In this document: positions 3,505 to 61,718 of the stretch, one piece after another | Numbering within the stretch: the first letter of the stretch is position 1 | How the letters are laid out: every line of letters starts with the position of its first letter | Assembly (NCBI GenBank): GCA_002633005.1 | Contig: NMRA01000680.1 | Span: forward strand, 145,095-209,094 | Source: Phoronis australis | Taxonomy: Eukaryota > Animalia > Phoronida | Direction of reading: 5' to 3' | Length of the DNA: 64,000 nt | Notes under the pieces: generated by a model | Databases searched by the model: none | Told to the model about the DNA's origin: nothing | What the model saw: the letters and a program-made list of their open reading frames with translations, nothing else | Position numbers and translations under genes: made by a program

Positions 3505-3746
3505 TCACGCTTTGGTCTCATCCTCATACAACGGACCGACTTTATTCAAATAAGGCTTAACAACATTAAACGTTGGTATCTCAACAGCGTACGGGCGGAC
3601 ATGGACAATGGCATCTCGAGGAATGTCTTGTACTTTCGAGCGCTGTTTTGCTCGTCGGTGAAGAATGAAGAAAACCGTTAGCGCAGTCAACAGTGTTGCA
3701 AACACAACGGACAGTATGACGATCAACGTGGTGTGGTCTACGTCAC
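3505..3746 (-). CDS. Giant gene terminal exon: TM helix and cytoplasmic tail
   Basis: tttgcag acceptor; LIVILSVVFATLLTALTVFFIL then HRRAKQRSK (positive-inside); ends YEDETKA*. Confidence 0.9.
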
Positions 3747-3941
3747 CTGCAAATGACCAAAGAACTGACTTAGTAAACGTGCATTCTTACGTACGCCTCA
3801 TAGTTTTGAGACAAGTGAATCCATGTTTCTAACAGTAAGCATCATTTTACCAATACAAAACAATGTCTCAGATGAAAGAAAGACGCGGAGACGTGTATTT
3901 CTAAATTTTGAAATTTCAACCAGTTAAAAACAATTGAGTAC

Positions 3942-4017
3942 CTTCAATGATGAATGGAACGCTGATATGGAAGTCATCCTGAAGCAAATCCGCCTCAGCT
4001 TTTGAGCCGCACACGTT
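3942..4017 (-). CDS. Giant gene exon (end of ZP-C-like domain, hydrophobic patch)
   Basis: ccacag/gtactc; NVCGSKAEADLLQDDFHISVPFIIE; phase 0 to 1 fits both neighbours. Confidence 0.8.
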
Positions 4018-4677
4018 CTGTGGAGATGGAGATAACAAAAATAAACAGTAAAGTAGACGGCAATACACATTTCTTGGACAATTTTCAAACGCCTAATCAC
4101 GATTGATTTTCACAAAAAATCAAATACGCTACGTACAAACTTTCAAAACGAAAATTTAAAAATAGGTTTGTCGCCCTCAATGTGTTTACGATGGGTCTCG
4201 TAATCTAGGAACGGCAACATCATTAGCCTGGGGCGATTTATTTGGGGACTTTCACTTCTTCCGAAGTCCGCTGGTCTCACTACACGCAACCGGAAGTGTT
4301 TTCTAGGCGCACCCTAACGGCTGAAAGTCTCCCATTAACCACAACAACATGACGTGTATGATCTAAACCGGCAGATTCTAAGGTGCTCAAACCGGTTGAG
4401 TGTCCCAATCTCGACTCAGCTGACAGTAATGGTGTGGAAGCTTCAATGATAACGTCAACAGCAACAACAAGTGCAATTCATTACTACGATAATAGGTAAC
4501 AAAATTAAACATTTTAAAACAAATTATTGGTTACGGTTCTATAAAAAGTTCATATGAAACCAGCAATGGGAATTATGTCACAGAAATGATACTGGATTGG
4601 TAGCCCAGCTAGCTGACTTCTACTTCCGCTATACTAAGTGTATAACAACAAAAGTGTGAAATCGGTAATAAATGCAC

Positions 4678-4888
4678 CTTGATGCAAAAACTGTCATCAT
4701 TTCTTGTGCAAATTTTCAGTGTTAGAGAGTAGACAATGTCTTGTCTGGATCCTGGCATAACAACACCAACTGTCGATGCGTTGAAGGGCGGTGATATCGC
4801 CTTGAAGAAGCCCTCGTCTTCTTCGAATTTCGAAAATCCATCGCTCCTCGGCCAAAACGTGCGATTGGTCTCACTCAACAGTGGGCAA
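4678..4888 (-). CDS. Giant gene exon (ZP-C-like)
   Basis: ttgcag/gtgcat; CPLLSETNRTFWPRSD...SPPFNAS...IVYSLTLKICTRNDDSFCIK; phase 2 to 0. Confidence 0.8.
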
Positions 4889-5062
4889 CTGCAATGAATT
4901 TCCAATGCGTTTACTTTCATTCTGCTTCTACCAGTAACGGGAAATATTTAATTTTAACACCAGCTTTGGTTCTTCTTTCACTTAATTTACATTTTTTGAA
5001 AAAACGAAATTGATCAGAAATCGCAAAGGCTGTCGGTTTGACTCCAACTCTGAAATGCTTAC

Positions 5063-5101
5063 CCTATACCACTGCTCAGCACATTGGTATGATAAATGAC
5101 A
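5063..5101 (-). CDS. Giant gene 39-nt exon
   Basis: tctttag/gtaagc; VIYHTNVLSSGI(G); phase 2 to 2, creates GCP with the next exon. Confidence 0.7.
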
Positions 5102-6435
5102 CTAAAGAACACAAGATAATGTTTTAACTTAATCACAAGTTGGCCAATTATCACGCCATCGCAAAAACGAGTCTTAGTCAGGTAGAGCAATACACTGTAC
5201 ATCACGTAGCCACACTACTCTGGTTAAGGGAGACACTGAAAATGTGACGCGTACACAAACAGATGCCTTTATACTTAAATCGAAGAATTCACTTTCTGAC
5301 ATCATTAATTGTACTGCGTACGGTGAAACTGGAGTATTACACACAATTACCATGGGCCAAAAGTACACGTGATGACCATTTTTAAATAACGACACGAACC
5401 AATTTGAATGTAACATAGCCCTGTCATTTAAGTTATTGATGTTAATCAAGCCATCTCTGGTTTCTAGGACATCCAGTAGTCCAAGGGAACTCTAGTCTGA
5501 TGGTGTGCATGTTTTCTGTACATGATTCTTTCGCATTTCGCTTAATCGTCGTGCGGGACCGTCTGGAGTTGGTATATGGTGCAACTCGGGACGGTCTGGG
5601 GTCTACAGAAAACCACAGCTCAACTGTGACTCTACAACAATGTGATAAACGAGAGTAGTTCTACTTGCTGCGTCAGCTGCTGGTATGCTTATTTCTTTTA
5701 TGACACACAATGTGTGACTGGGAAAAGCGTTTTCAAAATAATTTGGATAAATCAGTGGAGTATGAGACCCCTGAGGTCCCTGTCAAGTCCTCACGGCAAT
5801 TTTACGTTATGCGTACGTCATTGAACGTACGTGAAAAACAATATCTAAACATTTTCAATTATGTTACTGCATTTGCACTCGTGCGACATCGAAGACGACA
5901 ATAATTGCTCATTATACATGTACTTGCAAAAACACGAAGCATTTTGAGTGTGCCCCGATTGACTTCATTCTCGCGATGGTTTCCGGGTGCATCAGTGATT
6001 GTCGTAAGGAATGCTGATAAAATCTTCAATGCAATGCTGTAAGGCTCAGTTCTGCCTTATTAGTAGACCTTTGGATCAGTGCATCTTCAGAATAGTGAGC
6101 TGCTCATCTGATGTGGTAGTGAACGTACAGTATGACTTAATTTATTGTGCATTTGTTACAATTAAAAGTAAAACCTCCATGAAATTAAGGTTTTGCTGGA
6201 TCATATGACTTTTTTTCAAAACATTAACAAAATATTGGGGAAAACGATTACACAGAATTTTTGGGAAAAAGAAAAATGATGTTTTGATCCACAAAGATTG
6301 GTCCAAATACGTTTTACTTTGCTTTTTCGCAACATGCCGTATAGTAAAAACAAACGTTTTAAGGAGGAATACGGACCAATCATTAGCGCATCTACCCCCT
6401 TTAACAGATTCTTTAGCAACAGTATACAAATTTAC

Positions 6436-6534
6436 CTGTCTCGCATGAGGCCTGTGGTGAACGCTGTGTCATTTTGTTTGGCCCACAATTCGACGGCTGT
6501 AATTCCATTGGCAACTTCAAGAGAAAAGGATGCA
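6436..6534 (-). CDS. Giant gene exon
   Basis: caaaag/gtaaat; ASFSLEVANGITAVELWAKQNDTAFTTGLMRD; phase 2 to 2. Confidence 0.6.
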
Positions 6535-7147
6535 CTTTTGAAATATACCAAGTACGACAGCAAATTGTAAAAAGTGATAGATTTGCTGCTCAGTAGTTAA
6601 TTGGTTAGACCTCCTTCTACAGCAGTGAAGTAATTCGATTCCGAAATCATGAAATACTTTAAAAGTCCAGGAGACTTTTTCTCAGTTTAAAGCATATTTC
6701 TTCAACAAAGTCTGCACTCCAGTGGGAAACTTCAAGGAAGCAATGGGGACTAATCACGTGGGATCAGTGACTTATATCGCCACCTACATGTAGTTGGGTA
6801 CCTGGAGTCACTTTGTTTTCGCATCGGGTAGCATATAGGGGAACAGTTTGACTTACCAAATGGACCCTTTTACACTGTATTTGATTAGACGTGACGATTT
6901 TTAATAAAAGATATAAAGTGACTCCTCGTCCACTAGGGGCCACTAATATCCGGTCCCAAGTGAACAGTCGCTATTAAAAGTCTCCCATTGGCCATCTAGT
7001 CAATGTCACGCAACCGCAAGTTTTACAAACGATGACCATTTCGGGGTCTAAAGGGCAGTTAAACAGATGGGCTAAGCGGAAGTGTACTGACTGCTTATAA
7101 GGACAGGACAATCTTCACATTTCAAAAAGATTAGTATAATCACGTAC

Positions 7148-7260
7148 TTGACGATTTCAACAGCGTCAACACTATCACTATTTTCTCGTCTTGCCTGGCC
7201 GTGGTCACAGGATCTTGCGGTGCGCTTGATCTGGCCACGTATGCTGAATACCCAGGTTGC
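7148..7260 (-). CDS. Giant gene exon
   Basis: tccacag/gtacgt; ATWVFSIRGQIKRTARSCDHGQARRENSDSVDAVEIV (phase 0 to 2); a second frame is also open. Confidence 0.65.
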
Positions 7261-8042
7261 CTGTGGACAAAGGAAGGGTTGTCATTTTATTTTTATTTAT
7301 TATTTATTTTATTATTGTGATATTTGAAATGAGGGTGGCCTCCTCAGTGATAGCATTGCTTTCCAAGAGGTCCTCATTCGTATGTTAAGAGGCCAATTGC
7401 CTTATCCTATGTGGTTTTAGGGGACACGGACCCCCTAGTTACATAAACAGCAAAAAATTAAAACAAAAAACAACAACGTCGGCTTTCCATTTTGGGGGCC
7501 TTCATGGAATTTTTACTCGAAAATTATGGTCTCCTGGCACTTAAGATGTCTTAGTTCCGCTTCACCATCCCAGGTCCAAATTAAGTGTAGAATTTTTATT
7601 CAAGCATATATCCACCTGTGAGCAAGGCAAACTTTGTAAAACCGTTTCAGACCCCCTGCCCTGTCGTCGTCAATTTCAACTGGCTTGTCATTATTTCGCA
7701 CGCAGTCTCCACCGACTTCCCTTAAGCACCCCCATGACGTCACCGAGTATTTAGTATTCAATCCGGTCACCACCATCAAAGCCTCTCAAAATTACCACAA
7801 GTGTGTCGATATTTCTGAACAAAGATGGTCTCATTTGCAACAGGAACAAAGCGCAATGCATCATGCATGTAGGTCTTCAGCAGGACCCACTTTACAAGAT
7901 ACTTTAACCTGCAGGGCTCTAAATTTCTACCACTTGGACTTGAAATGTGAACGATGAAACTGATGGTAAAGTATCACTGATCCCAGACCAGTAACAGGAA
8001 CAAGCATGGTGATTTAAGATAGGTATTTGAATTTCACTATAC

Positions 8043-8191
8043 TTGGCCCTTTGGATAGAGCTTGGGACTTCACTTAGGCACTCTTCGGTTCCACCTCCAC
8101 CGCAATTGACAACAAACATGGCATCACTTCCGGTCAGCTGACCAAAATGGCGGATCATGTAGAACTTGAAAACGTTTGGGTTTCCAGCCAC
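8043..8191 (-). CDS. Giant gene exon (end of ZP-N-like domain); donor uncertain
   Basis: tttacag acceptor; VAGNPNVFKFYMIRHFGQLTGSDAMFVVNCGGGGTEECLSE...; the link to 7260 is unresolved and may need another small exon near 7890-7960. Confidence 0.6.
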
Positions 8192-8723
8192 CTGTAAATA
8201 GATGTGCGTGCTAAATCCCGGTGCATTGGGGACTTGGGGAGCAGGATCCTGCCATTTCCTTCGGGTCAGCAAAGAAATTGGCTTCAAAGATAATCAGATA
8301 ATTGCTCGCCCACGTGATAACCTAGATACGCGCCAGTGCACATGTTGGTACTGCAACCTCAGGGATGATGTATGTATACTGTTTTCACTGCTACGCTTCA
8401 CATGGTCTATAGGCGGTGCGCCCATATAGCCCCCATTTTTCAGTCGGCTGCGCCGCCCATGGTATACAGATATTTTGCTTTCGAATTCGTTTTTTAACTA
8501 TGAAAACACTATAAGCAGTTCCTGGCTTCATCAAAATGAAAAGGCTTAATTTCCTTTCATGCTCTCGCATTAGCCTACACAGCCTAAATGTCCATCATTA
8601 CTTTGGAAGTGCCGTGAAATCCGCGGCATTTTGGCAACAAGTTTGATTTTGTTCGTGCTCGTTTTTCAAGTTTGCTTCCACTGAATCGATGGCACAACAC
8701 TCTCGCTCAAAATTGAAACTCAC

Positions 8724-8931
8724 GTGGGTCAGCGTGTTGCATCCCCTACTGGCCGTATTTCCAACTGTTAAACGAATCACAGTTTCGCTACCATCGATGT
8801 CGGTATAACATTTGGGTTGGGATAACATCGACATGCTATCTTCCTCATGCATAAAGAGTCTTGAAAATGGTCGGTTAGCGGTGCGAGGCCTGTACAAAAT
8901 GTCAACGCTGTCAACTTTCCCTCCGACTAGT
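8724..8931 (-). CDS. Giant gene exon (ZP-N-like)
   Basis: tgtgtag/gtgagt; LVGGKVDSVDILY...QPKCYTDIDGSETVIRLTVGNTASRGCNTLTH; phase 2 to 0. Confidence 0.75.
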
Positions 8932-9049
8932 CTACACAAGAACGTAACTAAAACATAATAAACACAGATATATCACTATCCCAACTGTTCATGCATACAT
9001 GAAATTTCGTTCAAGATACGATGAAAAAGTATTAAACAGTATGAAATAC

Positions 9050-10161: not shown

Positions 10162-11730
10162 CTAGAAAGACAATGGGATGACAACAAGGAAGGATAACTC
10201 TGAATCTTAGACAATTGATCATTTCTAAGATAGTCTGATACAGAGATTATTTACATCACATTGCAAAGGAACGTGGACTACCTGTCATCCAATGCAGACT
10301 GAAACCTAGTGATGAAAATAGAAGCCCTAAACCCACATTTCACGTAGAAAACAACTGATATTGTTGCTTTATAGCTTTAGTCAATAACTCGATGAAGTCC
10401 TTCCCATCCGACAATAACCACAAAAATGTATTTCAGTCCATAAAGCCAATAATGTATTTTAATTTCAGGGAAAACGGGGATAGGCCTATCTGGAAAATCA
10501 ACTTGAAACTCAGCAACCTTGGTAAAGGGAATGATATAACATGTGGTCAATTACAAAAAATATTGGTGTACACTGCTAAAGAAAGTTTGGACGGAGTGGA
10601 CGGCAAAATGAGAGCGGCTCTCCTAGCTTATTTATCGCCTGCCTGAAGGCGTGTACTGAAGATAGCCGCTTTATCCTGCGTCGGCAACGGGAAAATATTA
10701 ACTCTGATCTTATAGCCCTCAAGGCCGACGGGAACCAGCGATACAAAAAAATCCAAAATTCTGAAGAACCAAAAAACACTGATAGGCAAGTCTGAAACTC
10801 TACGATCCAATGGAAACGCTCAGGACCTCGTGACATCTGTTTATATTTGACACTCCGAGTAGAGTTCATTAACTGCCTCGCAGCTAGAAAAAAAACCTAG
10901 CCACAATCACGTGTTCTCATTAAAAATACACAGCAATATCTCAGATAATATCGTGAATTGTTGCTTTTTAGCGATGTCCTAGCGTTGGTCCTTGCGTTAT
11001 TGAACTCTTCTTTGATGTCATGGCGTTGAACTTGTTGTGTCACTCTGTCCACACGAGGGCGCTGCGACGGAAGGCTGCTTTTAGATATTTGCTGCTCTAA
11101 TTGATTTGGCATCTGTTTGTCTCACTGCCTTGTTTTGTGGTCTACATGTAGGAGTTTTTGAATCTATTTCAATCTGGTTTAATCTATAATTAAACTATGC
11201 TGCTGCAGGTTTCAGCTTCGACAGTAAAGAACATTTAAAGGAACAAGTGCAAACACCAACAATCAAATGCAATGAAGGCACAGAGGCATTTCAGGACCAA
11301 TGCCATCACCTCAGCGGGGATACACTGAGCGACCGTGGGGCCGCTCGCACTAAAATTTGGTTAAATTCCAGTCAATACTCACTTCTTTCAAACTTTCATG
11401 AAGAGCCACCATGGCGATCTGGGTGGGATACATCACCTGCTCAGTTAGTTCACGTTTTTTCCTGAAGGCTTGACGTGGCTTCCGCGTAGGTCTGGTATCG
11501 CACAACTACAAATAAAACAACAATGCATTCATGGCCGCTGTTGCTGGGTTACCGGACAGGAGGTTCGCTAGCCAGGTCATGGATCATGCGAACAGTTTGA
11601 TTTCCCGACGGTGTATTTTGACAATGACTTCTGCATTGTCTCTCTATGTGTTCAACATACAAATACAAATAAGCATTCAGCGAATTATTGTCATGTGTGG
11701 CAATAGTATAAATCGTTAATGTGATACAAC

Positions 11731-11831
11731 CTGTCCAACTACAGTGGTTTTAGTCCAGATCACGTCCTTCCCCAGATTGAAGTCATCACATGAATTACAA
11801 GATTCACACAATTCCTTCCATTCAGTGTCAT
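11731..11831 (-). CDS. Giant gene exon
   Basis: cttgcag/gttgta; DDTEWKELCESCNSCDDFNLGKDVIWTKTTVVGQ; phase 1 to 0. Confidence 0.7.
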
Positions 11832-12295
11832 CTGCAAGTATATAGGCATACAATTTAGGAAACACATTAAACCAACATGTAGCGCATCACTTTTACGAAT
11901 GCAACCGGTTTCAAAAAACTTGTCCAACGTTGAATTCTGTTACGAATCACATGCAGCTGACATTCTATGTTACACTCACTTGTCATTTACAAAAATACGC
12001 TGGTCCATATTCAAGAACCAAGCTCTTCGTTAGACCATTTACACAGCTGAAAACCTTTTTGGATGTTGCTTACGCGTATCCACTTGATGTCATGGCAAAC
12101 ACCTTCTTTCCATTTACCTGCCCCTGTTAATAAGACACTAGGCAACATCAGCAAGGAAATACGTACCATGCAGTCGTGACTCGAGTTTGACTAAAAAGCC
12201 AAAGCAAGGCACGCTTAATAGACCTTAACCGTTGTGAATCGAGTACGTGACTAAAGAAAAAATAGTTTCTGCGTGACTGAGAATTTCAACTATCA

Positions 12296-12985
12296 AACGC
12301 AATGTTTGCCTAAAATGTAGGGGGGCTCGAATTCTTGAGGACGTGGAACTTTTCCTAACATAATAAAAAACGGGGGAGGAAAAAAAGAAATGGGATACCA
12401 CGTTCGCAGCTGTGAATTGTTTGGTCACGCCTTTATAGTGGACTTTTGTATAGTTTTCTCAGATTTTTCGTTCATTTCGCTCAGTGTTTGAAGTCCAGTG
12501 TCCGTAAAATGGGGTACGTTTCTGCGGACGGCCACTTAACAAGTGTGCAGCAGTTTGTTTACGTTAACAGCTTCGCATTTGGTTTACTGCTGTGATAAGT
12601 CATCTGGCTGTCTGTGAGTGAAATGTGCCTGAACATTAGGTTATTTAAACTGTTGCATTATTCTCATTTAATTTTGAAAGTTGATTATGAGTTGTCGACC
12701 AGCGGAATGTTCTTGGTCACAATCGACTCACATTTGCCAAAGACACGCCTATAAATATCCATAAATAGTTCCATTGCCAAAGCAACACTGTCTGTGACCT
12801 GGCATACATATGGTGTCATCACCCTGGGTTGTTACCAGTTGTGTAAACCGACTGGATACTAGTGTTCTAATAAACTACCCCTACGGAATGAGTTCAGACA
12901 CTGAGCGTAATGTTCCTGTGATTCGGACTTTTTTGCCCCCTTCGCCACACGGGGGTATCGTTCAAGCCCCCCTGGGTGCGCGCAT
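12296..12985. mobile_element. Degenerate copy of a MITE-like family also at 39.0 and 56.2 kb (probably interrupted)
   Basis: Shares cctaaaatntagggggg-ctcgaatt (near 12310) and the terminal gcccccctgggtgcgcgcatg (12965-12985). Confidence 0.5.
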
Positions 12986-14004
12986 GTACATGGACCGCCA
13001 ACTTCGTATACTTTCAATGGACGAAATATGTGGTCTTTCGCACAAGCCCCGTTAGGTCATTCTGCACTAGCGACACCTGGCCAAATTATCTGGTCTTATA
13101 TCCGGCTAATCATGGCTGGCTGTTGTGTGGTCGGGTGGTAGTAGCATTGCTAAAACTACTCACGACATCAACAGTTCTATTGTTGGAAGACTTTGATATG
13201 CGCTTCAATCCCGAATTGTTATATTTTAGTTTTACTGGACTGTGGAATAGATGCAAGAATTTCCCGTAACAATACACTAACCGGAGTATGCACAAGATAC
13301 TTTAGGAGAGTGGCGCCACCTCTAGGAAAGTACACAAAAAGATGTCGGATTTTCGAATATGTTGTCTATAATCTATGGCTTGATATGCATAAAACGTTGC
13401 ATAGAGACGTCGGATAATAGAACCCTAAGACTATAGAAACGTCTACATTTTTATTATTTTCGTACTATTGAACCGTCGCATTTCTGAACCTTCGCGCTGT
13501 AGAACCTTTTTGTGTTGCTTAATGTTTTTTTAAATACTTTGGACTGTTGAAACTTCAGACTAAGGAATTCTTTAATCATTTAGACGCACCCATCTACCAT
13601 AGCCGTAGCATATTTTCAAGGTGTATTTTTGATAAGGAGTCGCTCCCCAGCAGGCTGTCCCATTGAATGTTACATCGATAAAGGATTTTGATCCAGGACA
13701 GGTAAAGAAACAACGAACAAGTGACCTCAAAATCAACGTGTTAGTACTAAACACGCAAAACTCGTCTAACTCCACCAAACGAAATAATGCAGCTCGCAAA
13801 GTCGATGATGTTTTCACGTAAACTTCATGTCGCACAAAACCAGGGAGATTTCAGGCACTAGAAATTTTTAATTTTCAACGAAACTATAAGCCAGACTATG
13901 CTATCAAGTGGATGTCCTTATGTTTCATTAGGTCCCAAAACGGACTGTTGAACAAAAGACCTCAAGGAGACAATGCGAGCCATACAGAGGAGGTACTATC
14001 TTAC

Positions 14005-14150
14005 CTGGGTCATAGAACATCAGAGCTGGAATTTGTCCCTCCCTTAAGGCTTCACGATCAAACGGAACGCTGACGTCAATAGGGTGAGAGAGCATTGCAT
14101 GGTCCTCAATAGGACTGATGAAGAACGAAGATCCGGTGTAGTCTTCAAAC
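14005..14150 (-). CDS. Giant gene exon
   Basis: aatcag/gtaaga; FEDYTGSSFFISPIEDHAMLSHPIDVSVPFDREALREGQIPALMFYDP; phase 2 to 1. Confidence 0.85.
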
Positions 14151-14570
14151 CTGATTTGAATATTATGATAAATGGATTGAAGTAGCGACTGGAACAACGT
14201 TAAAACATTAATGACGTTAAGTGTATCATTTTCGGGATTAGGCGTCATACTAAAGGAAATCTTTGGCAATCAGAACAACGATATTCTTCCACATCCATAT
14301 CTATTTCATGCATTTCTTGGTTTCTGCAATTAAACAAAATTTCAATCTTAAAGGCAGCACCTTAATTTAATTCCACGAAGATTAATTTTGAACGAATGGC
14401 CAACTGGATTTTTTACTAATTATTCCTTGTTGATGGCCAGATTAACCAGCTTCAAGTAGGATTTATCATTTTGCATTGTTTTGAAGGGGTTAAGACCCGG
14501 CTACTGTAATTAAGCAGCTGATTTACAAGGACCATAGCTTATGTTTTGACAGTTACTAAAATCGAGTTAC

Positions 14571-14718
14571 CTGCTTTTCAATCGTCTTGAACTCATCGTT
14601 TCCTCCCTGCTAGTTTCTGGATCTTGAATATACTGCTGGAATGTTACGGAAGCAGCGGAGCCGTATCGCGCTTTGACATCGAGTTTGTTTAATGTGCCCG
14701 CAATAACGGATGTATTGC
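14571..14718 (-). CDS. Giant gene exon
   Basis: tattcag/gtaact; GNTSVIAGTLNKLDVKARYGSAASVTFQQYIQDPETSREETMSSRRLKS; phase 1 to 2. Confidence 0.85.
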
Positions 14719-14981
14719 CTGAATAGCAAGAATTGTGACAGAAACCCAGAGTGAACTGCCAATTACAATTTTCCAATTCTTTCAGTTGCTGAATGTGCCA
14801 TGGTGCCAGGCTAATCATGTGCGCTTGATATGGTGTAAAGGTGTCTCAAAGGAGCTCGTGTTCTGCACAATGCAAAACAATTCAATGGTGTTTAATACAT
14901 GTTTAAACTATAAAAATGCCTTAGCAAACCGTAAAAAATAATTTTAAACGATTAAGTCAAATTGCTTACAAACGAACCTAC

Positions 14982-15098
14982 CTGTTATTTCGATTGCAAT
15001 AGGAGGCAAGGTTTTGGCGGAAAGGTCTGAAGACGGCTGTTCCAAGTTCATAATCGTTGGCTTTTCGACTTCAAGTTTGCGGATTATGTCGCTCTTTC
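14982..15098 (-). CDS. Giant gene exon
   Basis: cttttag/gtaggt; KSDIIRKLEVEKPTIMNLEQPSSDLSAKTLPPIAIEIT; only the phase-1 frame is open. Confidence 0.8.
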
Positions 15099-15366
15099 CT
15101 AAAAGTAAAGCAAAATAGTGCATATGTAGTTAGAGAAATTCATGGTGCTACATTTGTTCTGCAGACAGCCAATGGTCAAGGAAATTTCATTCTTGCTTAT
15201 GAAACCGTAAACCAATCTCCTTTGGGATTATACAGGTATCATTCAAATTTTCTGGCGGCAGCTTTAACTGTACTTTTGTTCTATGCAATATGTTAAGAAT
15301 TTTCTTTGCAATTTCAACTTCGGATTTTGTGTAACCCAAATCATGTTATCAAATGAACAAACGTAC

Positions 15367-50234: not shown

Positions 50235-50446
50235 ATTATAAAAGTCAACAATATCGCCCTTGACATCCTCAACAAAGTGCTTTACGCGGTAAATGACTTT
50301 CTTCACTGCTTCTATCCAAGGCAATTTGCCGTAATCACTTACGATCTTGGCAAACTTAATAATGTTCTCAACTATTTCTTTCAGTTTCCGAGGAAGTCCT
50401 TTGACGACATCAACGAGTTTACTGATTAGGCTGCGTAACCCTCCAT
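50235..50446 (-). CDS. Giant gene exon (amphipathic helices)
   Basis: cttctag/gtaagt; DGGLRSLISKLVDVVKGLPRKLKEIVENIIKF...VEDVKGDIVDFYN; phase 1 to 0. Confidence 0.9.
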
Positions 50447-51309
50447 CTAGAAGTACCAGCAAACAGCGTTAATTGTAATGCGACAGGGACACTGAAAACA
50501 AGACAAGACTACAGTCAACGAGTTCTGAACACACCTGCATCCACGGTGCGGCAAGGGGAGAAAAAGCCACCACCTCGTAAAATGCCNACGTTATGTATTT
50601 GAAAGTCCAAAAATAGGTTGTTGTCTCGTTGAATATTGGATAAGTTTTTGCGATTTCCTTTAGTTCTGTATCCTTCGCAGTTGGTGTGGTGAACTTAGGC
50701 AAGCATTCGTCCAAAAGTGCACGTACTTACACATTCATTGGAGCTTTAAGACTGTTTCAGTGGCATTTACACAAGCATGTGATAAACTATTTACCCCCCA
50801 AACAACCATCCGAAATTTGTAGATAAGTGCATTATGATACATAGGACATGGACAAACATGTATTGCGTATATTAGTGATACTATTTCACGCAGTGTCCGT
50901 TACTGTTAACGAGAGACAGCAGACGACATGTTTGCGATTGTTTTGTCCGGGTCTCGCAAAAGTCATGTAGCGTCAGTTTTTCTCTTTAGTAGAAAAACAA
51001 AAAAGGTTATGTCACGAGGGAAATTACAATAGTACAGAGCGATAATGTGTCAATTTCTCCGTGTGTCAAACTATCGCAGGACATTTGGATGGTGTGGCGG
51101 AATGGGCCAGTCTCCAAGAGCGGGTCAGTTATTAAGACAGGGTACTGTTGGCTGTTGATTCACAAGTGTTGGATTGGAATTTTTTACAAGGCAAATTTTA
51201 CAACTTTTATTTCACGGGTATGGGAAGAAGTATCCAGGTGACACATTGACATTGGAAATATGGGTTATATCTGGAACAGTATAATAGTAATACTAAACAC
51301 ATGAATACA

Positions 51310-51410
51310 AGCCCGCGCACAAACGTACACAAACGCGTGCACACTAAGGAGCACGCGCACGTGTACGCGTGGACACGCACGCACACACACACCAACACAA
51401 ACACACCTAA
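51310..51410. repeat. Degenerate (CA/CG) microsatellite
   Basis: gcacgcacacacacaccaacacaaacacac. Confidence 0.7.
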
Positions 51411-51790
51411 ACATTCCTTTTATAATTGCAGAACAAACACTCAGATGATAAATGTTGCCGCACCTCAAGAGTATCGCTTGATGATTCCGCTAGGAAGAAC
51501 TGACACGACAAAAATGAAGTTTTGTTAGGCTTGACAACACCATTTTAACAGACAATCGAAAGTTCATCAGTTCTATCATCAATATACCTGGAGTTGACAT
51601 TTTGTGCTTAGACTTCTACATGCATGGTGACACCACGAACATGATGAATTGCACTTTTATCGGCATAGAACTCGACACAACGTGCTTTTCCCAGAGGTAG
51701 AGTTTCGTCTCTGAGGATCACGCCCAGACATGCTTACCTCGAGTTAGCACTTATCTTAATTTTCAAGTCGAGCAGACACACTGGACTTAC

Positions 51791-51911
51791 CTTTAACAAA
51801 TTCCATCACTTTTTGAAATGCCTCGATAGTTTTGCTTATGGGGTCCACCACGTTGTCATGTAATTTGTCAAAAATAGTTGCCAGTTGTGAGATGTCATTG
51901 ATGCCAAAATC
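51791..51911 (-). CDS. Giant gene exon
   Basis: tttacag/gtaagt; DFGINDISQLATIFDKLHDNVVDPISKTIEAFQKVMEFVK; phase 0 to 1. Confidence 0.9.
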
Positions 51912-52024: not shown

Positions 52025-52170
52025 CTTCAATATGTTTAGGTTGTAGCTTATATCACCACGGTAACACGCCTTGGCGCGGAAGATGTCGAATTCCCAATTC
52101 ATGAATCCAACCAATCCCTGAACATATGCTTCGTTGTCGATATCAACCTCAAAAAATCCCGAAAGTGGCT
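52025..52170 (-). CDS. Giant gene exon
   Basis: tttttag/gtaagc; PLSGFFEVDIDNEAYVQGLVG...RAKACYRGDISYNLNILK; phase 1 to 0. Confidence 0.9.
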
Positions 52171-52542
52171 CTAAAAATACAGTAACTATACCAGTGAGAA
52201 TTCTGAGGAAAAAATCGTATGGGTTCAACTCAGTTATTCGTATTAGCTCAGTTGTTGGTATAAATCTGTTTTAATTTCAACACAATTTAATGTGAATGAT
52301 GGCGGGATGCAATTTTGCTGTATTTAGGACATTGCAGTCTGTCCGCCAGACGCGTTGCGTCCCATTGCAAGATATTGAGATCTTGTTAAAGTGCGTCTGG
52401 ATTTTGAAGGGGTTTTTAGTCAATGCACATCTTTCGTAACGAGATATCTCTGATGTGTGAGTCCTGAAAGACATTTGTAAAGTTAACGCAGTTCCTGTTT
52501 CATGTACTGCACAGTATGGCTCCAAAGTCTGCTTTCTCTTAC

Positions 52543-52724
52543 TTAGTTGCAGTCTCACGCCATTGCGTATGTTTAGACCAAAACTTGCGCCAATGGCTCT
52601 CGAGCCGATCTTTTTAGACCATTCAACGCCCGGTAGGTAAACTTTGAAACTCAGTGCTTTAAACAGTCTTGCCAAAAACCGCCTTTTTCTACTCTTCATA
52701 AGAAGGGGGTAGGTGTATGACTTC
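52543..52724 (-). CDS. Giant gene exon with RKRR furin-type site
   Basis: attttag/gtaaga; KSYTYPLLMKSRKRRFLARL...LPGVEWSKKIGSRAIGASFGLNIRNG; phase 2 to 1. Confidence 0.9.
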
Positions 52725-53294: not shown

Positions 53295-53425
53295 GCAAAA
53301 ACCATATTGAACTCGTCTGAGCTCACATTCCGTCGCATGGGGTGTTTTTCATAACGGTTGTGAGCTAACTCTCGCACAGTCTCGTAACGATCGTTCAGTG
53401 CCGTGTCCATGAGAACAGATGCGCT
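53295..53425 (-). CDS. Giant gene exon (LLT-like helical region)
   Basis: ctattag/gtaagt; SASVLMDTALNDRYETVRELAHNRYEKHP...; phase 0 to 2. Confidence 0.85.
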
Positions 53426-54745
53426 CTAATAGGTGAAATATGTGTAACATTTTAGTTAAAGCTTACCTGTAAATATTTTTTATAAAAATAGAAGCAACAT
53501 AAAACGACTCATTTACACCCGTTTCATAAAACCAAAGGTAGTGATGTGATTTGTTTTGAAGCCAGATTCAACACTAATTACTTGACGTTAAAACTGTTAA
53601 TCTCAAACTCCAGGTGCGTAGAAGAAATAATCCCAACCTATCCGAGAAGGTGGTTGCCCCAAAGTCGAGGCAGTTGAAAAGTCGAAGTCGTTAAGTCATC
53701 TCGTCGTATTCAAAACACCTAGAAATAGCCCCACCTAGAAAATATTGACCACAAAAGTTTTTAAAGACGTGTTAATCACACTGGATTCGGTTTTATTTTA
53801 TTTAAACTCATTCTTAGATTAGTTTAGTCTCCAGTGCTGACGTGCAATTAATGCGTGGGCTATAACTGATATTTTCTAATTCACGGCAGAGTAATCTGCA
53901 GAGACTACAGACAATGAAAAATTAACATCCATATTAAAGCTTTAAAAGACCCTAGAAATCTCTCCAAAATTTCGGAACATCATACAGATGTACAAATAGC
54001 TCGTCCGCTTTACGTCATGCTTTATTCTTTGTCTTCCAAAACTTCATTAGGAAGTGTTTTGAAAATGTTTGCAGGTTGGCCAATTGATGTTATTTAAATA
54101 AACGATCAATATGAATGTGTTGTGTCTTTTTTATGTAGAAAAACTATTGCTAAACATGTCACCTTCGCACGAATTAGAACAGAGCACAAAACATCAAAAA
54201 TTTATCTAGGGAAATTCTTGCATGGCTTTGACAACGAGTAATAGGAGTTCAATCAACTTGATATTTCACGCATCAGTCCTGATGCGAATTCGGGCATCGA
54301 GGCCTGCGTAATGTTTACTTCATTTTTATAGAAGATGCTTGTATCTGCTTCAATTGAACGCTAACCGGAAACAGAATCGGACATGACTGAAGTAGCGAAA
54401 ACGCAACAGTGGAATGGTGAAGCGGTTTCTTATTTTTTGTGAAAGGATTACCCCACTTCCGGTTACTGGAGTTATGAATGCGCTATAATATGTACCTGCC
54501 CATCATCAATTAATTGAAGTGGTAACAAAGGAAATACAGTCTTAAAGCGATAATTTGTGTGAAACAAAACAAGCCTATAACTCAGTCACGACTTTAATCA
54601 AAGTGAAACAATCTTAACATCTGATCTATAAAGGCTCGAAAATGACAAATTTGCGAAAACTAACCGAACTTTAGACCTGAAATTGGTTATATAGACGATT
54701 AAATTTACTTTATGCCAATTAAATTATAGCCCATATCAAAATTAC

Positions 54746-54963
54746 CTCTTTACATGTGTACCAGCGCAAAGCGTTAATAGCCGATCGACGCCATGATGAA
54801 TGACCTGCGTTTGGCTTGGCGTATGATATAATGTGACCAAGAGCGTCGGCATGACCTGTGTTCCCCAGCGCTTCGATCAACACCATTTTGGAGAGCACGT
54901 AATCGTCTTCCGTTTCGTTTTTCACATTAATCGACCTTCGAACACGTTGGCCGGTATGAAGGG
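54746..54963 (-). CDS. Giant gene exon (LLT-like helical region, RVRR site)
   Basis: gtttcag/gtaatt; LIEALGNTG...WRRSAINALR resembles the LxALGNxG...RxxAxxALR motif of vitellogenin/MTP/apoB superhelical domains; phase 1 to 0. Confidence 0.9.
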
Positions 54964-55115
54964 CTGAAACCATATAAGTGAACTTATTTAAAAAAAAATC
55001 GTTGTTTTCACGTTCGGTCTTGTAATCAAAAGGTCTTAGCGATGACAGGCAATCCTGAAAAATAAGAAATCACTAGTCTAGAATAAATCTTCTTGCATAA
55101 AGGTAGTACTCTATT

Positions 55116-55710
55116 AATGGGGCTATTCGGAAAACCTACAACAACTAGAGGGCGTGCGTGTACTAGTGGTGATAGATTAACAGCCTCGATATCGCGAGCC
55201 CTTTAAATACATGGTGAAATGGCTTGCAGCCGTGCCAACTGAATCTGAGATTGCGTAAAAAGGGTGCTTCTATGAGGGGAAGTAAGCACGACCTCATACA
55301 AAGGTAAGGTNCAGTGGGGTAACTGGTGGGGATAACATCACCGAACGATGTTGATAGAAACTGATTGCTAAAAACTTACCAAGTAATGTTGTGTAGTCTC
55401 CGAATGGAACTGCATAGTCATAGAGCTCACACGGGGCTTCAGCATCCACACACTTTTTGTCAGTTAGTTGACCCCGTTGACCGCAATTGTCCACGAATAT
55501 AGTAACCTTAGGTTTTTTTGGGAATTTGTGGCCACTGTCGAAGACTTGCACCAGGGAAATTAGCAGTAATAAAGCTTAGCGCGACGACGTATTTTGATAA
55601 AAATTCCATCTTTTACCAGTTGTTTACATGCAGACAGCGACGCATGCGCAATTCAATCACCACTAGTACAGCAGCGACACCTCGAGGAGAATTCTCCGAA
55701 TAGCCCCATT
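55116..55710. mobile_element. ~600-bp TIR element carrying an exon-like segment
   Basis: Perfect 16-bp inverted ends aatggggctattcgga/tccgaatagccccatt and inner pair gtactagtggtgat/atcaccactagtac. Confidence 0.8.
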
Positions 55711-56185
55711 GTACTGGTATATTCCAAAAGACTCGTGGGACTTTATAGTGAATTAAGTTTGTGACATGAACAATGGGGGAGCTGCACGCCCATTTCTGTC
55801 ATCAAGATCGCTACTTGAACACAAGCGTGGGTCATCCTGGTTGCAATTTTACCATGCGTTTTCTGTGGGTTGTGATTATATATCGTCGGTTTTTCTCAAA
55901 TTACAGGTCGCTAGTTACTCAGTTTTCGTAACCTGGTGTAACCGATAGATTGTGACTTTCAACTTATTTGAAGTATGGACCCAGGCGGTTACGTTGATTT
56001 CCGCAACTGGACGCGCAACATCAAAGCAGCTTCGCCTGAAAATGCACAGCAGTGTTTCTTTGTTGCAAGCCGAGGTTGGACGAGAGGGAATTGTTAGAGG
56101 TACCAGAAGTGCTTCGCACTTAAGTGCTCACTATAACGGCATACATGTATGTGGATGAAGGTTACTGGCAAACAAATTGGGGGTG

Positions 56186-56434
56186 CATGCGCGTACCCAG
56201 CCTAAAATTTAGGGGGGGGGGGGCTCGAATTTTTCGATATGCGGACCTTTTACTGAAAAAAGTCAACGTGGACTAAACAAAACGGAGCCACTAGGTTCAG
56301 GCCCACGTATTGTGCATCCGCGCCGACTTCCCTTGGACTTTGTAGACTTTTGTCTCGTTTATCCGAACGTTTTGTTTCACTGAGCCGGACCTTTTTTGCC
56401 CAATTCACCAAACGAGCCCCCTGGGTGCGCCCAT
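56186..56434. mobile_element. ~250-bp MITE
   Basis: catgcgcgtacccag...ctgggtgcgcccat inverted ends; homologous to 39018-39288. Confidence 0.75.
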
Positions 56435-56832
56435 AGGATGGGCTTTTCAACGAAACGTTTACGTTTCAATGTGAACATTTTGAAAAACCCGGGAAGGATG
56501 TTTAGTCGCACACACCTACATGTACTGTAGGACGAAAAATGCAGATCGGTGTGCCTTGTTTTGATGCAGATTTTGGAAACGCGGAAGTAATCTGTTCCAT
56601 TCCAATCGTGAAATATTCATTACGGAAGCATATTCTGATACTCAAAATACGAGTGCATGTTTCACAATGGCTTTATCAATTACAGCTTACCATCACTAAG
56701 ATAAGAGATTCCACAAATTCGATCAGTACATACAATTAAATACACGCGAGGATTGCGACCGGAACGACCTGCGACTAGCAATCGTAGTAGCGAAATAAAC
56801 GGTCATACATGAAAATAGCTCTAATTACTTAC

Positions 56833-56973
56833 CTCCGTCATGTCGGCCAACCCAAGTAGCTAATTCTAACACAATTTCTGTGGCGAGTGTCTTGTTTGTT
56901 TTAGAAATAGTCTTGGCCAGTCCTCCGAGAGTTAAACAAGCACTATGAGTCTGCTGGGATGTGTTGTGAAATC
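56833..56973 (-). CDS. Giant gene exon (LLT-like helical region)
   Basis: tattcag/gtaagt; FHNTSQQTHSACLTLGGLAKTISKTNKTLATEIVLELATWVGRHDG; phase 1 to 1. Confidence 0.9.
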
Positions 56974-58160
56974 CTGAATAAACCAAATGTTTTAGTGAGA
57001 CTCTAGTGACAATCAATGATGTTTATATGGCATTTACCGTTTAATACACCATAAGCTTATATACATTGTGCTGGCTTTTAGCCATTCTCTTATCAACATC
57101 ACACAAAGGAGACGATACAATACTTGAAAATGCTTTTTAGACAATTGTGTGAAATTCACTTCCGACCCCAATTCAATTTGTAAAGCCTATCGGCTTTTTG
57201 TTGTGCTGGGACCTCGCGAAATTACGCAATATGGCATGAAAAGACAGCTTCCCCTATCATTTTGGGGTTGCATTTTCTTATTTTCCTAAGACTTAGCAAC
57301 ATGTAAATGTAGCAGTAACTGGTTAGTCCAATACATCTAAAATATCAAAATTCCTTTGAAGTTCGGCTTTAACGGAATATGTACTGTACGTTGACCAGAC
57401 AATCAAGACCACCTATGAACAAAGATAAATTGGGGAGGAATCAGCCAGGCTTCTGTTCCATAAAAAGAGTTAAAGCAAACATTTGACTGTAGTCTCTACG
57501 CAAGTTTGTATACACATAGCTGTGAAATAAAGAGATGATTTTAACACAATATTTCTTGACAGTGACGTGATCATAAGTGCTTGACTAAGCTTTTTTCAGC
57601 TACAGTGAAGTGGGAGTGAAAGACCAGATTTCTGTCTTAAGTTTTAAATCACTTTCATGACACAGACCAAGGAGCTTGATCAACGTGTCAGCAGCAACAT
57701 GTCATACCACGCAAGATTTGATGGCGGTTGCGATAAGAATCGAGCTTCAAAGTGAAGATTGCACCAGGAGGTCGTATAAACATCCGTTACAACTGTAACG
57801 TGGTGCTGAACAGTTCAGCCGCGACCAATTTGCGGTGCGAACATTTTAAATTCTAGCTAAGCATAGACCAGGCCTAGGGGCAAGCTTGAAGTATAGTAGG
57901 GGTTGCATGTATCCTCAAAAATACAAGATACAATAATGTTTCTGCGCTCATCTTTAGGGCTCGTGATGTGAAATACACTAAAAACTCAAAACTGTTCACT
58001 CTTGTCTTAGAATTTTAGACAGAGGGAAAACAATTTGACAAGTCCTTCGATGTGTTTTCTGCTTTGCAAAACCCAGTAATAGCTGTTCTGTACCAACACC
58101 CCCCCCCCTTACAGTAAGATCGTGATCAGGCATTTAGTATTATAATTATCTTTCACTTAC

Positions 58161-58215
58161 CATGGTTCCTCTTGTCCTTCCCTAAACATAGTTCACGCAC
58201 GGCATTGACGACATC
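58161..58215 (-). CDS. Giant gene exon
   Basis: catttag/gtaagt; DVVNAVRELCLGKDKRNH; phase 0 to 1. Confidence 0.8.
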
Positions 58216-59139
58216 CTAAATGTTGATAAGAGAACTCTAAATGTTTGTTGCTAAACAATAAGTAGTTCAATGTATAGAAACTGGTTTGTCATGAGGTTTT
58301 AGTAATTAAAAATCTGACAACTTAAAGTTATGCAATGCGCTACAAAAATTCCAATTTTGGCCAATTTCGGAACATCGTATCTCAGATATGGCTTATTGGA
58401 TTCACTCGAAAGTTTCAAATACAGCGTCTCTTGCTTCATTCGCTGTTTTACAAAGCGCTGTAAGTAACCGCTTTTAAAATGTTCCACTTCTGCATGAGGG
58501 AATATCAAAAATAGGACTTCAAGAATTTTTATGAAACTGTTGCTTAAAACAAAACAAAATGATTTTTTAGAAAACTGTAACATTTTTTTAAAATGCTATC
58601 TTGAGCATTTGCATTATACTAAATTGGTTATTTTAGTGATCCTTCTTTTGCTATGGCTGCACCTTTACTTTGTGCTCAATTCTTCTTAAAAAGCAAGGTC
58701 ATGATAAACTTGGCGCAGGTAAGTACAACGTAAAAAACAAACTTTACAAAATTTCTACTATCAGAAAAATGTATAGTTTGGATGACTTAGAACCTACAGT
58801 TTTGTACATGTTTGGCTTAAACTACAGACTTGTCCATACGGTCCTACATGACTTTGAAGCGACAATAAGACCACGCCTTCTAAAGAAATAACAACTTCTG
58901 ATTAAGGCTGATGATATACGTACATACAAGTTTTCAAAATATCTCACCTCGTTTTTATTCAGGTTTAGAAATGACTGTTAATAGAATAGAATAAAATAAA
59001 ATAAAATAATTGCAGGCGATAGGATACACGTTGTACAAGACGTGCGCAGGCCGCGCATGTGGGCCCATTGCACTGATCACTTGGAACCATTTTTATGCTT
59101 CATTAATATATGCTTAAAACCGAGCTGCCGTGCTAGAAA

Positions 59140-59240
59140 TTTGGCTCATGGACTTAGCAGTGTGAGCCACTGGAACTCGAACCCACGACCTTGCGTAAAA
59201 AATGCGGGCACCAATCACATTAGCTCACACTGTCTCCTCT
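59140..59240 (-). mobile_element. Possible tRNA-derived SINE remnant
   Basis: ggaactcgaaccc is the reverse complement of a B-box (GGGTTCGAGTTCC). Confidence 0.35.
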
Positions 59241-59289
59241 TACTTTTAGCAGAATAACTGGCAAACAGTAATTATTCGTCAGGGCATTT

Positions 59290-60100
59290 GTTGTCTTGTT
59301 CATGGAGCGTTCGGATGAATTCCAGGCATTTTAATTCAGCCAAAGAATAAGAAAACGGTGAAGTTGCTTTGAATGATCAAATGCGCCTGCGAAGACCCCA
59401 AGACACGTTAACGTGATGGAAAGTATTATGTAACGAGTAAAGTATCGGATAAAGTTGTTGAAAATGCTTCTTACTAGATACGCTAAAGCGGCTGACGACA
59501 TGTTAGCCTATTTAGATAGGAATGAAAAAAATACTTGGATATCATCTGTTAGACATTTGCTATTAAAGCACGGTTTTTATGAAATTTAGTTGAATGAAGG
59601 GAGTGTCGCATGCAAAGGGTCGGTTTTAAATTTCATCGCTTAAAGAGTTAATGACTGATATGAGCATGGTAGTCGATCAGAAATAGAGCACAATAGAAAA
59701 CTTAAATACTACTGCGTTCTTAAACGTTTACTCGGAAAAGTTGTTCTTACCATAGGCTGCAAGTGGAAGTCGATAGGCATGAGAAAGTGCAATGTGACAA
59801 AAATTATGATCTATTTGCAGTGATGGTCTTGTAGAGGAAGAGTATCGGCTCCTGTTGATTTGCAAGAGATATTATCAATGTAGATCGTCACGTTTCATGT
59901 AAGAAGTTCAGTGGAACCATCCAACTCAAGAATCCTGTATACGTTTGCCAGCGAAACCAGATATGTATGCTATTAATTATGTGTATTGATGCCCTTACAA
60001 GAAGAGAACAAATCTCAAATGGGTTTACTGCGTGGGCAAATTTGCCTGCTTAATTTATGTTTACTGCACTTTGAGCCAGAAGCCTTTCATACAAATAACC
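59290..60100 (+). mobile_element. Degenerate 3' end of a non-LTR retrotransposon ORF2 (RTEX-like)
   Basis: Interrupted frames give TWISSVRHLLLKHGFYEI, KLKYYCVLK and ICSDGLVEEEYRLLLICKRYYQCR (CxxC..EDExH...C..Y...R relic) with stops. Confidence 0.7.
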
Positions 60101-60256
60101 GCATGAAGTATAATAATGCCAACGATAAACAACTTTAAATGATTACCTTTCTCAGTGACTGAACTGCTTCCGGAGTGTAAATTGTGTTTAAAACGGCTCC
60201 TGACATTGTGTACAAGCGACTCATGTTTTTGAAAATATCACAAAGACCCACTTTAC

Positions 60257-60543
60257 CTGGTTTGGTTGATCAAGACCAACAAACTGGAACAGAATACGTG
60301 CAACTTCCTCTTCGTTGGGATGCGGTCGTTTGAGCACACGCCTTACCAACAAAGACTGTACACCAGGCGTCGCTATCTGACACATCACGTCAATAATCAA
60401 ATAGCGATCATCCTGGCACCTGTTGTCGTGTTCAGAGCACGTGCGGTCTAGCAAGTCACTTCCCAGAGCAACCAAGTCTTCTGGATACAACTTCTTTAAA
60501 CTTTCTTTCAGTTGATGGACGCATTCAGTGCGGTTTGTTGCAT
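60257..60543 (-). CDS. Giant gene exon (LLT-like helical region)
   Basis: ttcgcag/gtaaag; ATNRTECVHQLKESLKKL...YLIIDVMCQIATPGVQSLLV...LDQPNQ; phase 1 to 0. Confidence 0.9.
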
Positions 60544-60767
60544 CTGCGAAAGAACTGGTCTTATGGAACGTCTGTTTAGAATTCCCTGCGGGTATCTCGA
60601 ACAAAATTATCAAAATCTACACGAACGTTTTTGGAGAAAGTCTCAATCTGCAAACCAGTGACACAAGTTCCCGCGTACATTAAAAAAACGCTGTTTGGGA
60701 AGTTTAAATCAATTTTACCGTGAGACTGACAAATACACACATGTTCCTTATGATGAAGCTCACTTAC

Positions 60768-60852
60768 ACTTGTCCTCGTATCTTTTGATGCACTCCATGC
60801 TATCGTTGATTTCAGCCGTCATATTGCTCAAGTGAAAGAGGCGAGGTGGTTT
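60768..60852 (-). CDS. Giant gene exon
   Basis: attttag/gtaagt; KPPRLFHLSNMTAEINDSMECIKRYEDK; phase 0 to 1. Confidence 0.8.
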
Positions 60853-60887
60853 CTAAAATCGGAGTTGTAGATTTTATGTACGTAATT

Positions 60888-60954
60888 ATGAGTGGTGTAG
60901 TGGTAAAGTCGGCGACTCGAAACTCTTGACGCCTGGGTTCGAATCCGGCCTCGG
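60888..60954 (+). mobile_element. tRNA-derived SINE head or tRNA pseudogene
   Basis: A-box TGGTGTAGTGG (60893) and B-box GGTTCGAATCC (60936) at tRNA-like spacing; no convincing acceptor stem. Confidence 0.6.
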
Positions 60955-61654
60955 TTATCTCACTAAATTTATAGGTTATTACACGGTTGTATCTGCCATT
61001 CGAGGCTAATGTTGTGGTATAAATATAAATATACGTGTATTTAAAGTTGCAGTTATGTGACAGAGAGGACGTTTGATTCAAATATGTAAACACAGACATG
61101 TTATGTGAAAATGTCAAATAAAATATGAAGTTAACGTGTTTACTATAGTCAATAATAATAAAAGAATCTTCACACTTCAATAACTGCTGTACAACTTGTC
61201 AGTTCCAAACATCAAATATTTTAACAGTTTTGTAAATTAAATTTGCTAATTTGGCTCATCAGCCAAGTAAGACTCGTGGCTGATAAAACGTGTAAGTAAA
61301 TACAGAAATTTCAAAGTACCGATGCAAAAATTGTGACCAAATAACCTAACATGCTGAAATGGTGATGGTTGACACTGAAATGTAATATTATACCAGAGCA
61401 ATGACTATTATATAATGTAAATCTGAAATTATGTTAAAGTACACTCAAGGAAATTGCAGAAATTCGAAGGGAACGTTCACCTGCCACGCACCTCATTTGG
61501 TGGCTATTTCTAACTGCACCATCGGATTAATCGTATTGTTTTCACCATCATCATAATTATGTTTGCTATTCGAGGACTATGAAATAAAATTCTCTGTCAT
61601 ACTCTTCCAAACGCTATGAAATATTGCATTGTTGTAAAGCGCCAACCACCTTAC

Positions 61655-61718
61655 CTCACGAGGTAGAATATCATCCCGTTTCAGATTTTCATGACCAGAG
61701 CTTTCCTTTACCAGGGGA
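61655..61718 (-). CDS. Most 5' exon of the giant gene supportable here
   Basis: ttttgtag/gtaagg; PLVKESSGHENLKRDDILPRE; phase-0 end fits 60852. Confidence 0.65.

Follow-up and report, generated by a model that had tools for sequence, protein, structure and literature searches.

A predicted membrane-anchored member of an old, uncharacterised family with the large lipid transfer module in Phoronis australis

The large lipid transfer (LLT) proteins are known as soluble carriers (vitellogenin and the apolipoproteins) or as loaders in the endoplasmic reticulum (MTP). As far as the available text of PMC10799875 goes, these three are the only classes listed, and their origin is placed near the cnidarian-bilaterian split. 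In a stretch of 64,000 nucleotides of Phoronis australis (contig NMRA01000680.1 of assembly GCA_002633005.1, positions 145,095 to 209,094; hereafter the window), a large gene on the minus strand was analyzed whose product belongs with the LLT module but is neither a vitellogenin nor an apolipoprotein nor MTP. By its homologies, the gene belongs to an old family that is uncharacterised and within which its base is unusual. With vitellogenin/lipovitellin, apoB, apolipophorin II/I and MTP, the family shares the LLT barrel, the helical domain and the C-sheet, as judged by profile and predicted fold, as well as furin sites. It differs from them in a helical arm and an M23 domain predicted within the C-sheet, in an array of FN3 repeats, in a transmembrane (TM) anchor and in the lack of a DUF1943 or vWD match; DUF1943, DUF1081 and vWD gave no Pfam match in 22 homologues. 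MTP consists of LPD_N only and comprises about 890 residues, whereas the window protein exceeds 4,680 residues and has many domains.

The gene model was obtained by homologue-guided search and splice-site reading. It contains 47 exons, its 46 introns all have GT-AG borders and keep the phase, and the spliced open reading frame (ORF) encodes 4,681 amino acids within the window before it ends with TGA at 3505. The long ORFs of the window sit on the minus strand, and tblastn showed the gene to be collinear with its homologues. The predicted protein carries 40 N-glycosylation sequons, a single TM helix and a tail with three tyrosines. A preliminary description of the locus, made from the sequence, had proposed about 50 exons in one ORF with a TM helix and a Tyr-bearing tail. 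This picture stood, apart from one frameshift that needs correction: the only frame break of the exon chain coincides with an N at 42200, and since four of four reads of RNA run X2 lack two letters there, the frame is restored at about this position. Four RNA runs with one species label were mapped over 3.3-23.3 kb and 32.7-52.3 kb. Among the joints listed, at least 13 of the 46 model introns were matched, spanning the M23 exon to the TM exon and including the FN3-to-base junction (16443/16835) and the joint of the TM exon (3746/3942); short reads cannot show a single transcript. In X2 and X3 the exon reads lay specifically on the minus strand, and X4 had almost none. The first exon opens mid-codon, and a profile of the homologues' N-terminal part found no LLT barrel exon in 61.8-64 kb. 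Relatives carry a signal peptide and about 230-270 further LLT-barrel residues ahead of the start of the window gene. Signal peptide and barrel are therefore expected upstream of the window; the ORF is 5'-incomplete, a feature beyond the preliminary description, and the full-length protein is likely to comprise about 4,900 residues.

The same description had taken the protein for a unique mosaic, but the architecture recurs in an old conserved family that extends from molluscs to a chytrid. The largest window exon found 100 long relatives, none of them more than 36% identical, and the head of a Haliotis homologue (P0004, residues 20-1150) matched 273 representatives at E <=0.001. Names were looked up for 30 proteins, 26 of which came from the best 150 of these 273; the taxon list is partial, and absence from vertebrates, insects and nematodes is not claimed. 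The named head matches belong to gastropods, bivalves, amphioxus, Saccoglossus, crinoids, Capsaspora (4,741 residues) and the chytrid Geranomyces (5,052 residues); for the choanoflagellates Salpingoeca urceolata and Bicosta minor, only head pieces occurred among the matches listed. Full-length relatives were found in molluscs, amphioxus, a hemichordate, echinoderms, Capsaspora and a chytrid. Most of the named carriers live in water and feed by grazing, filtering or phagocytosis. XP_046569948, XP_060074374, XP_006820036, KJE92161 and KAJ3164071 share with the window protein the order from LLT to the FN3 array and differ in their C-terminal bases. LLT and M23 were present in 26 of the 72 collected proteins of at least 3,300 residues, and seven of the 26 end in a TM helix; these seven thus unite LLT, M23, FN3 array and C-terminal TM in one chain. 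In two rough trees (one quick, one FastTree) the window gene grouped with mollusc sequences with support values of 98 and 100. The Actinia, Oculina, Dendronephthya, ENA035 and Picozoa rows of the quick tree were anchored on FN3 repeats and have no meaning, and cnidarian matches covered FN3 repeats only. Four large FN3-array proteins (P0084 of Picozoa, P0035, P0037 and P0095) show no clear M23 but share the beta-meander described below, so that the family may in part extend outside the opisthokonts. Every named relative is labelled 'uncharacterized', 'hypothetical', 'Vitellogenin domain-containing' or 'Fibronectin type-III domain-containing'. In agreement with the earlier statement that no characterised protein has this architecture, no paper was found that unites vitellogenin, FN3, peptidase M23 and TM or that names any of six locus ids, in a search that left most subscription journals and supplements outside.

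The head was recognized through P0004, with which the window model aligns at a phmmer E of 1e-83. Pfam Vitellogenin_N was passed by three of ten proteins in one set, P0004 (45.8 bits; cut-off 24) among them, and by eight of twelve in another; the passers come from Haliotis, Mizuhopecten, Littorina, Capsaspora, Salpingoeca and Bicosta. A single window exon alone reached E 0.026, and a 51-row family head profile matched lipovitellin (E 7e-9) and MTP (E 3e-7). An AlphaFold model of P0004 20-1150 (pLDDT 81.6, pTM 0.55) shows, in this order, a barrel, a helical domain, four long strands, a helical arm of 300 residues, an M23 fold and two more strands. The first 11 rows of a Foldseek search with this model were all LLT proteins (MTP, E 2e-13; lipovitellin, 1.5e-11; apoB, 2.6e-11), and VIA fold comparison gave Z values of 21.5 for lipovitellin, over model residues 3-1131, and 21.1 for the apoB barrel. 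As the VIA alignments of lipovitellin 17-754 and MTP 24-705 run through model residue 1131 and hence resume past M23, the helical arm and the M23 domain are predicted to be inserted within the LLT C-sheet, and not to follow the LLT part as formerly supposed. The N-terminal barrel (N-sheet) is predicted by the Haliotis model; the barrel exons of the window gene itself would lie outside the window. The motifs EALGNTG and RRSAINALR occur in the LLT helices, RVRR (aa 231; 54946-54935) lies within the alpha-helical domain, and an RKRR-type furin site separates the helical domain from the sheet in all eight LLT-bearing homologues listed. A hydrophobic beta-meander, conserved out to Capsaspora and the chytrid, is likely to be the rest of the lipid-binding sheet and would complete the LLT cavity.

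The M23/LECT2-like fold, like the LLT head, had been noticed in the preliminary description and was borne out by homologue profiles and AlphaFold models. The family head profile matched LECT2 (E 1.5e-5) and also an M23 peptidase, and the M23 domain of the P0004 model gave a VIA Z of 13.4 (root-mean-square deviation, rmsd, 2.4; 116 residues aligned). In the window protein the catalytic positions (HxxxD, HxH) read L, D, F and H (LKGID, 43509-43495; FIH, 42261-42253). Catalytic histidines are replaced, and by this reading of its residues the domain is catalytically dead. In this respect it resembles LECT2 and the degenerate LytM factors EnvC, NlpD and DipM, which have an M23 fold without the full catalytic set. 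In EnvC the M23 domain likewise sits on a long helical stalk, and 8tzl was matched over residues 708-1104 of the P0004 model. Unlike in these proteins, M23 is here an internal part of a giant eukaryotic surface protein, and some relatives keep the full motif. All four catalytic residues were found in P0007, P0102, P0105, P0110, P0115 and P0200, of which the named ones are molluscan; intact motifs occur, for example, in the domains of Littorina and Babylonia. It is possible that these intact-motif relatives are active animal peptidoglycan peptidases. Degenerate M23 folds serve as binding modules according to the accessible part of a review of 2022 (PMC9662197), which states that fungi had so far yielded none. 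The Geranomyces variabilis proteins P0234 and P0262-P0264 contain a degenerate M23-like domain at residues 1041-1184 (family profile E about 1e-27).

Between the head and the membrane, 18 FN3-like repeats were counted in the window protein and 15-20 in 11 homologues using an own profile, and a PAN domain (32076-31879) scored above the Pfam cut-off (E 3e-5). The PAN domain, the repeats, the cationic run, RVRR, RKRR and the two helix motifs are all present as first described. One FN3 repeat spans about 4 nm, so that the head could stand some 70 nm from the membrane. Within the array lies an insert whose motifs we take to be GH16-like. Pfam Glyco_hydro_16 was detected inside the insert in one of 12 homologues (E 0.057), whereas the window insert and an 11-row insert profile gave no GH16 match, and the catalytic ExDxE/ExDxxE motif, searched for by eye, is missing. 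The GH16 identity of the insert is weakly supported, and of the two dead enzyme folds proposed at the outset M23 was confirmed as such and GH16 was not. These domains bear on the idea of a feeding or defence enzyme that digests cell walls, M23 and the GH16-like domain cutting peptidoglycan and glucan and the LLT head taking up the freed lipid. HxxxD and HxH are indeed kept in six of 55 family M23 domains, but the other 49 are degenerate, the window protein itself has lost the set and its insert lacks ExDxE, and this explanation appears most improbable.

Close to the membrane, a GAIN-B/ZU5-like domain around a furin loop, which the preliminary description does not contain, is predicted from a Lingula homologue. 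The loop RKKR (aa 4253; 11463-11452) precedes the last strand of the domain, PTQIAMVAL (11427-11401), and relatives share the succession of W-x-W-C-C, a basic loop and a T/S-x-F-A-V strand ahead of the base. In the AlphaFold model of Lingula P0002 2040-2480 (pLDDT 81.1, pTM 0.77) a low-confidence loop (289-300) holds RRKR and is followed by a strand at 307-314. Among 48,161 chains, a VIA search with this domain matched the ankyrin ZU5 (Z 9.7, rmsd 3.1, 132 aligned) and CD97 (Z 9.4 and 9.1); over these matches, Z ranged from 9.1 to 9.7, rmsd from 3.1 to 3.3 and the aligned length from 132 to 140, with ends at model residues 316-318. Most of the other 47 rows were cadherin-like matches to the following domain. 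The matched CD97 ranges end at 540-542; CD97 is cleaved at 530/531, so that they end on its tethered strand. The domain thus resembles GAIN (adhesion GPCRs, PKD1) and ZU5 in a predicted beta-sandwich by the membrane, in the W..W..C..C pattern with a T/S-x-F-A-V last strand and, as to GAIN, in a cut site directly ahead of this strand. It differs from GAIN in having a furin loop in place of the HL-T/S autoproteolysis triad (the window protein reads M-Y-P-T), in lacking the helical subdomain A (the Lingula model has short helices only) and in its single-pass protein, which belongs to neither of the two families to which PMC11697300, in its available text, assigns the GAIN domain. The basal furin motif was present in 16 of 24 complete rows (28 rows in all, some of them near-duplicates); the Capsaspora homologue has the last strand without the furin loop. 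When the Lingula domain was modelled as a complex of its two furin products, without an alignment, the score was 0.14 and spoke neither for nor against their association. In GAIN domains the cleaved strand remains bound, as stated in the accessible part of PMC3321182. By analogy, the position of the basal furin site inside this domain suggests that the ectodomain is cut by furin yet stays attached. The membrane anchoring proposed at first was supported; simple proteolytic release was not favoured. A Haliotis paralogue (P0106/P0253) has two GAIN/ZU5-like domains (aa about 4203-4435 and 4744-4870), the first of which lacks a furin loop, and no TM.

A domain of this kind might also belong to an adhesion or mechanosensing receptor similar to polycystin-1, adhesion GPCRs or Notch, in which a pull parts the clasp, the stub signals and the LLT head is the ligand-binding tip. 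The vicinity of the GAIN/ZU5-like fold to the membrane and the cadherin-like and EGF domains ahead of the TM helix in relatives agree with such a function. On the other hand, the protein passes the membrane once, its tail is short and unconserved, some family members have no TM and the model lacks GAIN subdomain A, and we consider a receptor of this type improbable.

Relatives with a TM helix have two cadherin-like and two EGF domains between the clasp and the membrane. The window protein has instead a base with cysteines at 4322, 4364, 4387 and 4422 and then at 4507, 4566, 4574 and 4579. Placed by eye, they fit ZP-N plus ZP-C without Cys5-Cys7, both of these positions being Leu. Loss of Cys5-Cys7 is known in NompA and CUTL-28 (PMC7456536, as far as its available text goes). 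The base resembles NompA, CUTL-28 and endoglin in the ZP-N/ZP-C-like cysteine spacing before the TM helix; it differs from ZP membrane proteins in the lack of profile support and of a cleavage site before the TM (there is no RxK/RR after aa 4256, hence no furin site between base and TM) and in being a lineage-specific swap for cadherin and EGF domains. The ZP-like module of the preliminary description was not recovered by profile: single exons of 25-74 residues, too short to exclude ZP, had no Pfam, PDB or homologue match, a structure-atlas search with single exons reached 0.82 at best, below the useful range, and the window model was not picked up by a ZP regular expression written by hand. 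ZP is unconfirmed because only short exons could be searched; in view of the cysteines the base is nonetheless probably a ZP module. Residues 4285-4605 matched none of 283 collected proteins, nor the profile of the family's cadherin and EGF base. Among these proteins, the ZP-like base seems to be peculiar to the window gene, where it would replace the base of its relatives.

This singular base raises the question whether two genes were joined, the family gene stopping near exon 40, with an independent ZP-like TM gene downstream. The listed joints do not include 10047/8947, and the base occurs in no relative. However, exon 40 has no stop, the splice phases match, exon 41 lacks an ATG and a signal peptide, both parts lie on the same strand with the same on/off pattern over X2, X3 and X4, and relatives swap their base at the same point, which makes two genes very unlikely. 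The base also bears on a structural protein of the apical matrix (mucus, cuticle, glycocalyx or egg coat), whose furin pieces would form a lipid-rich coat anchored or polymerised by the ZP-like base. The ZP-like cysteine pattern, the many sequons, several furin sites and the expression seen in two of the three runs from a single study are in line with this. By contrast, the ZP base is unverified and missing from all relatives, the same head occurs in unicellular relatives, and there is no cleavage site before the putative external hydrophobic patch, which polymerising ZP proteins use according to the accessible text of PMC7456536. We regard a purely structural role as rather unlikely.

The reading that we prefer, giving it an even chance, is that of a single-pass protein standing on the cell surface as a tethered antenna, which would capture lipid particles or microbes and is likely cut by furin but held at the membrane. 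The FN3 stalk would carry at its tip the LLT head, which would bind lipid, and furin would mature the protein at the head and at the base. The basal cut would fall inside the GAIN/ZU5-like domain, whose last strand would keep the ectodomain on its membrane base. The LLT cavity, the cationic run and the grooves of the dead M23 and the GH16-like insert may bind lipid particles or microbial envelopes, possibly at an exposed epithelium in feeding or defence. The loaded ectodomain might then be shed by force or by further proteolysis, or the complex might be taken up, and the ZP-like base may anchor the protein in the apical matrix. Several points weigh against this antenna. The LLT and clasp folds come from the Haliotis and Lingula homologues and not from the window protein, the GAIN/ZU5 Z values are middling and tied with many cadherin rows for another domain, and the cavity-closing role of the beta-meander is putative. 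The basal furin motif is absent from eight of the 24 complete rows. The tail, inspected by eye, shows no clear NPxY or YxxPhi and is not conserved, and 33 of the 46 introns, including the one leading into the ZP-like part, had no joint among those listed. Moreover, 19 of the 26 LLT and M23 proteins lack a C-terminal TM, some being cut-off models, and different terminal domains occur in Capsaspora, in the chytrid and in some of the paralogues. The Capsaspora protein ends in somatomedin B, and in amphioxus a C-type-lectin-like tail was recognised by eye. Tethering is therefore not family-wide.

Table 1. Coordinates of the gene and of its features in the window
Feature	Position	Strand	Basis or remark
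Whole gene	3505..61718	-	47 exons, 4,681 aa in window, 5'-incomplete; exon chain, RNA joints, tblastn collinearity
LLT alpha-helical domain, aa 40-335, exons 2-7	53312..60798	-	Homology to Haliotis P0004
Furin site RKRR (aa 353; 52690-52679), then first C-sheet strands, aa 353-450	52025..52690	-	
Long helical arm, aa 451-756, predicted C-sheet insertion	43603..51911	-	Helices 666-964 of P0004 model
M23/LECT2-fold domain	42143..43563	-	Homologue profile and P0004 model
Cationic segment, aa 926-990	41888..42082	-	27 K/R, 0 D/E in 65 aa
Hydrophobic beta-meander, aa 1345-1490	32644..35148	-	39-sequence family alignment
Array of 18 FN3-like repeats and PAN	16926..32559	-	Own FN3 profile; Pfam
GH16/ConA-like insert (putative), 280 aa	17706..18563	-	Found in 25 relatives
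GAIN-B/ZU5-like domain (predicted), aa about 4040-4275	11395..15451	-	AlphaFold of Lingula homologue and VIA
ZP-like base, aa 4318-4601	3943..8947	-	Cysteine and motif pattern only
TM helix (3726-3664; aa 4609-4627), 52-aa tail, stop	3505..3726	-	Hydropathy 2.69; RNA joint 3746/3942

Outside the coding exons, some other elements of the window were observed. The stretches 674-833 and 1560-1741 on the plus strand are the last two exons of a neighbour gene that lies tail to tail with the large gene; they had no PDB match, and we take their product to be short-chain dehydrogenase-like. Intron 27 contains three tandem units (26808-27925) with a spacing of 433-449 nt, which are 65-80% alike and have no continuous ORF; their interpretation as cassette exons was rejected. 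Deep two-strand RNA reads with loose ends were found in introns at 5539-5811, 10892-10986, 12320-13380, 39018-39243 and 45129-45440, and these five stretches are dispersed repeats. In intron 12, a minus-strand depth of 2.2 at 47088-47741 in run X3 is unaccounted for by the gene model.

As to the family as a whole, we tentatively propose, at somewhat less than an even chance, an undescribed pre-animal branch of the LLT proteins, an extracellular tethered antenna for lipid or microbes with a GAIN/ZU5-type clasp in which furin replaces self-cleavage. The fold would have to be considered older and more versatile, given a giant family that is anchored in the membrane in several animals and whose LLT module also occurs in choanoflagellates, Capsaspora and a chytrid. 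A furin-opened GAIN/ZU5-like clasp would be a new means to make an ectodomain that is cut but tethered. In the available text of PMC13171883, the receptor for the uptake of lipid vesicles by Capsaspora is not known; as the Capsaspora member has no TM, a link to this process is only a lead. The family is open to testing in Capsaspora, oysters, mussels and amphioxus. If the proposal is true, these proteins would offer a candidate explanation of lipid uptake from particles in invertebrates and their unicellular kin, and would descend as a relic from a protein ancestral to the yolk and serum lipoproteins.

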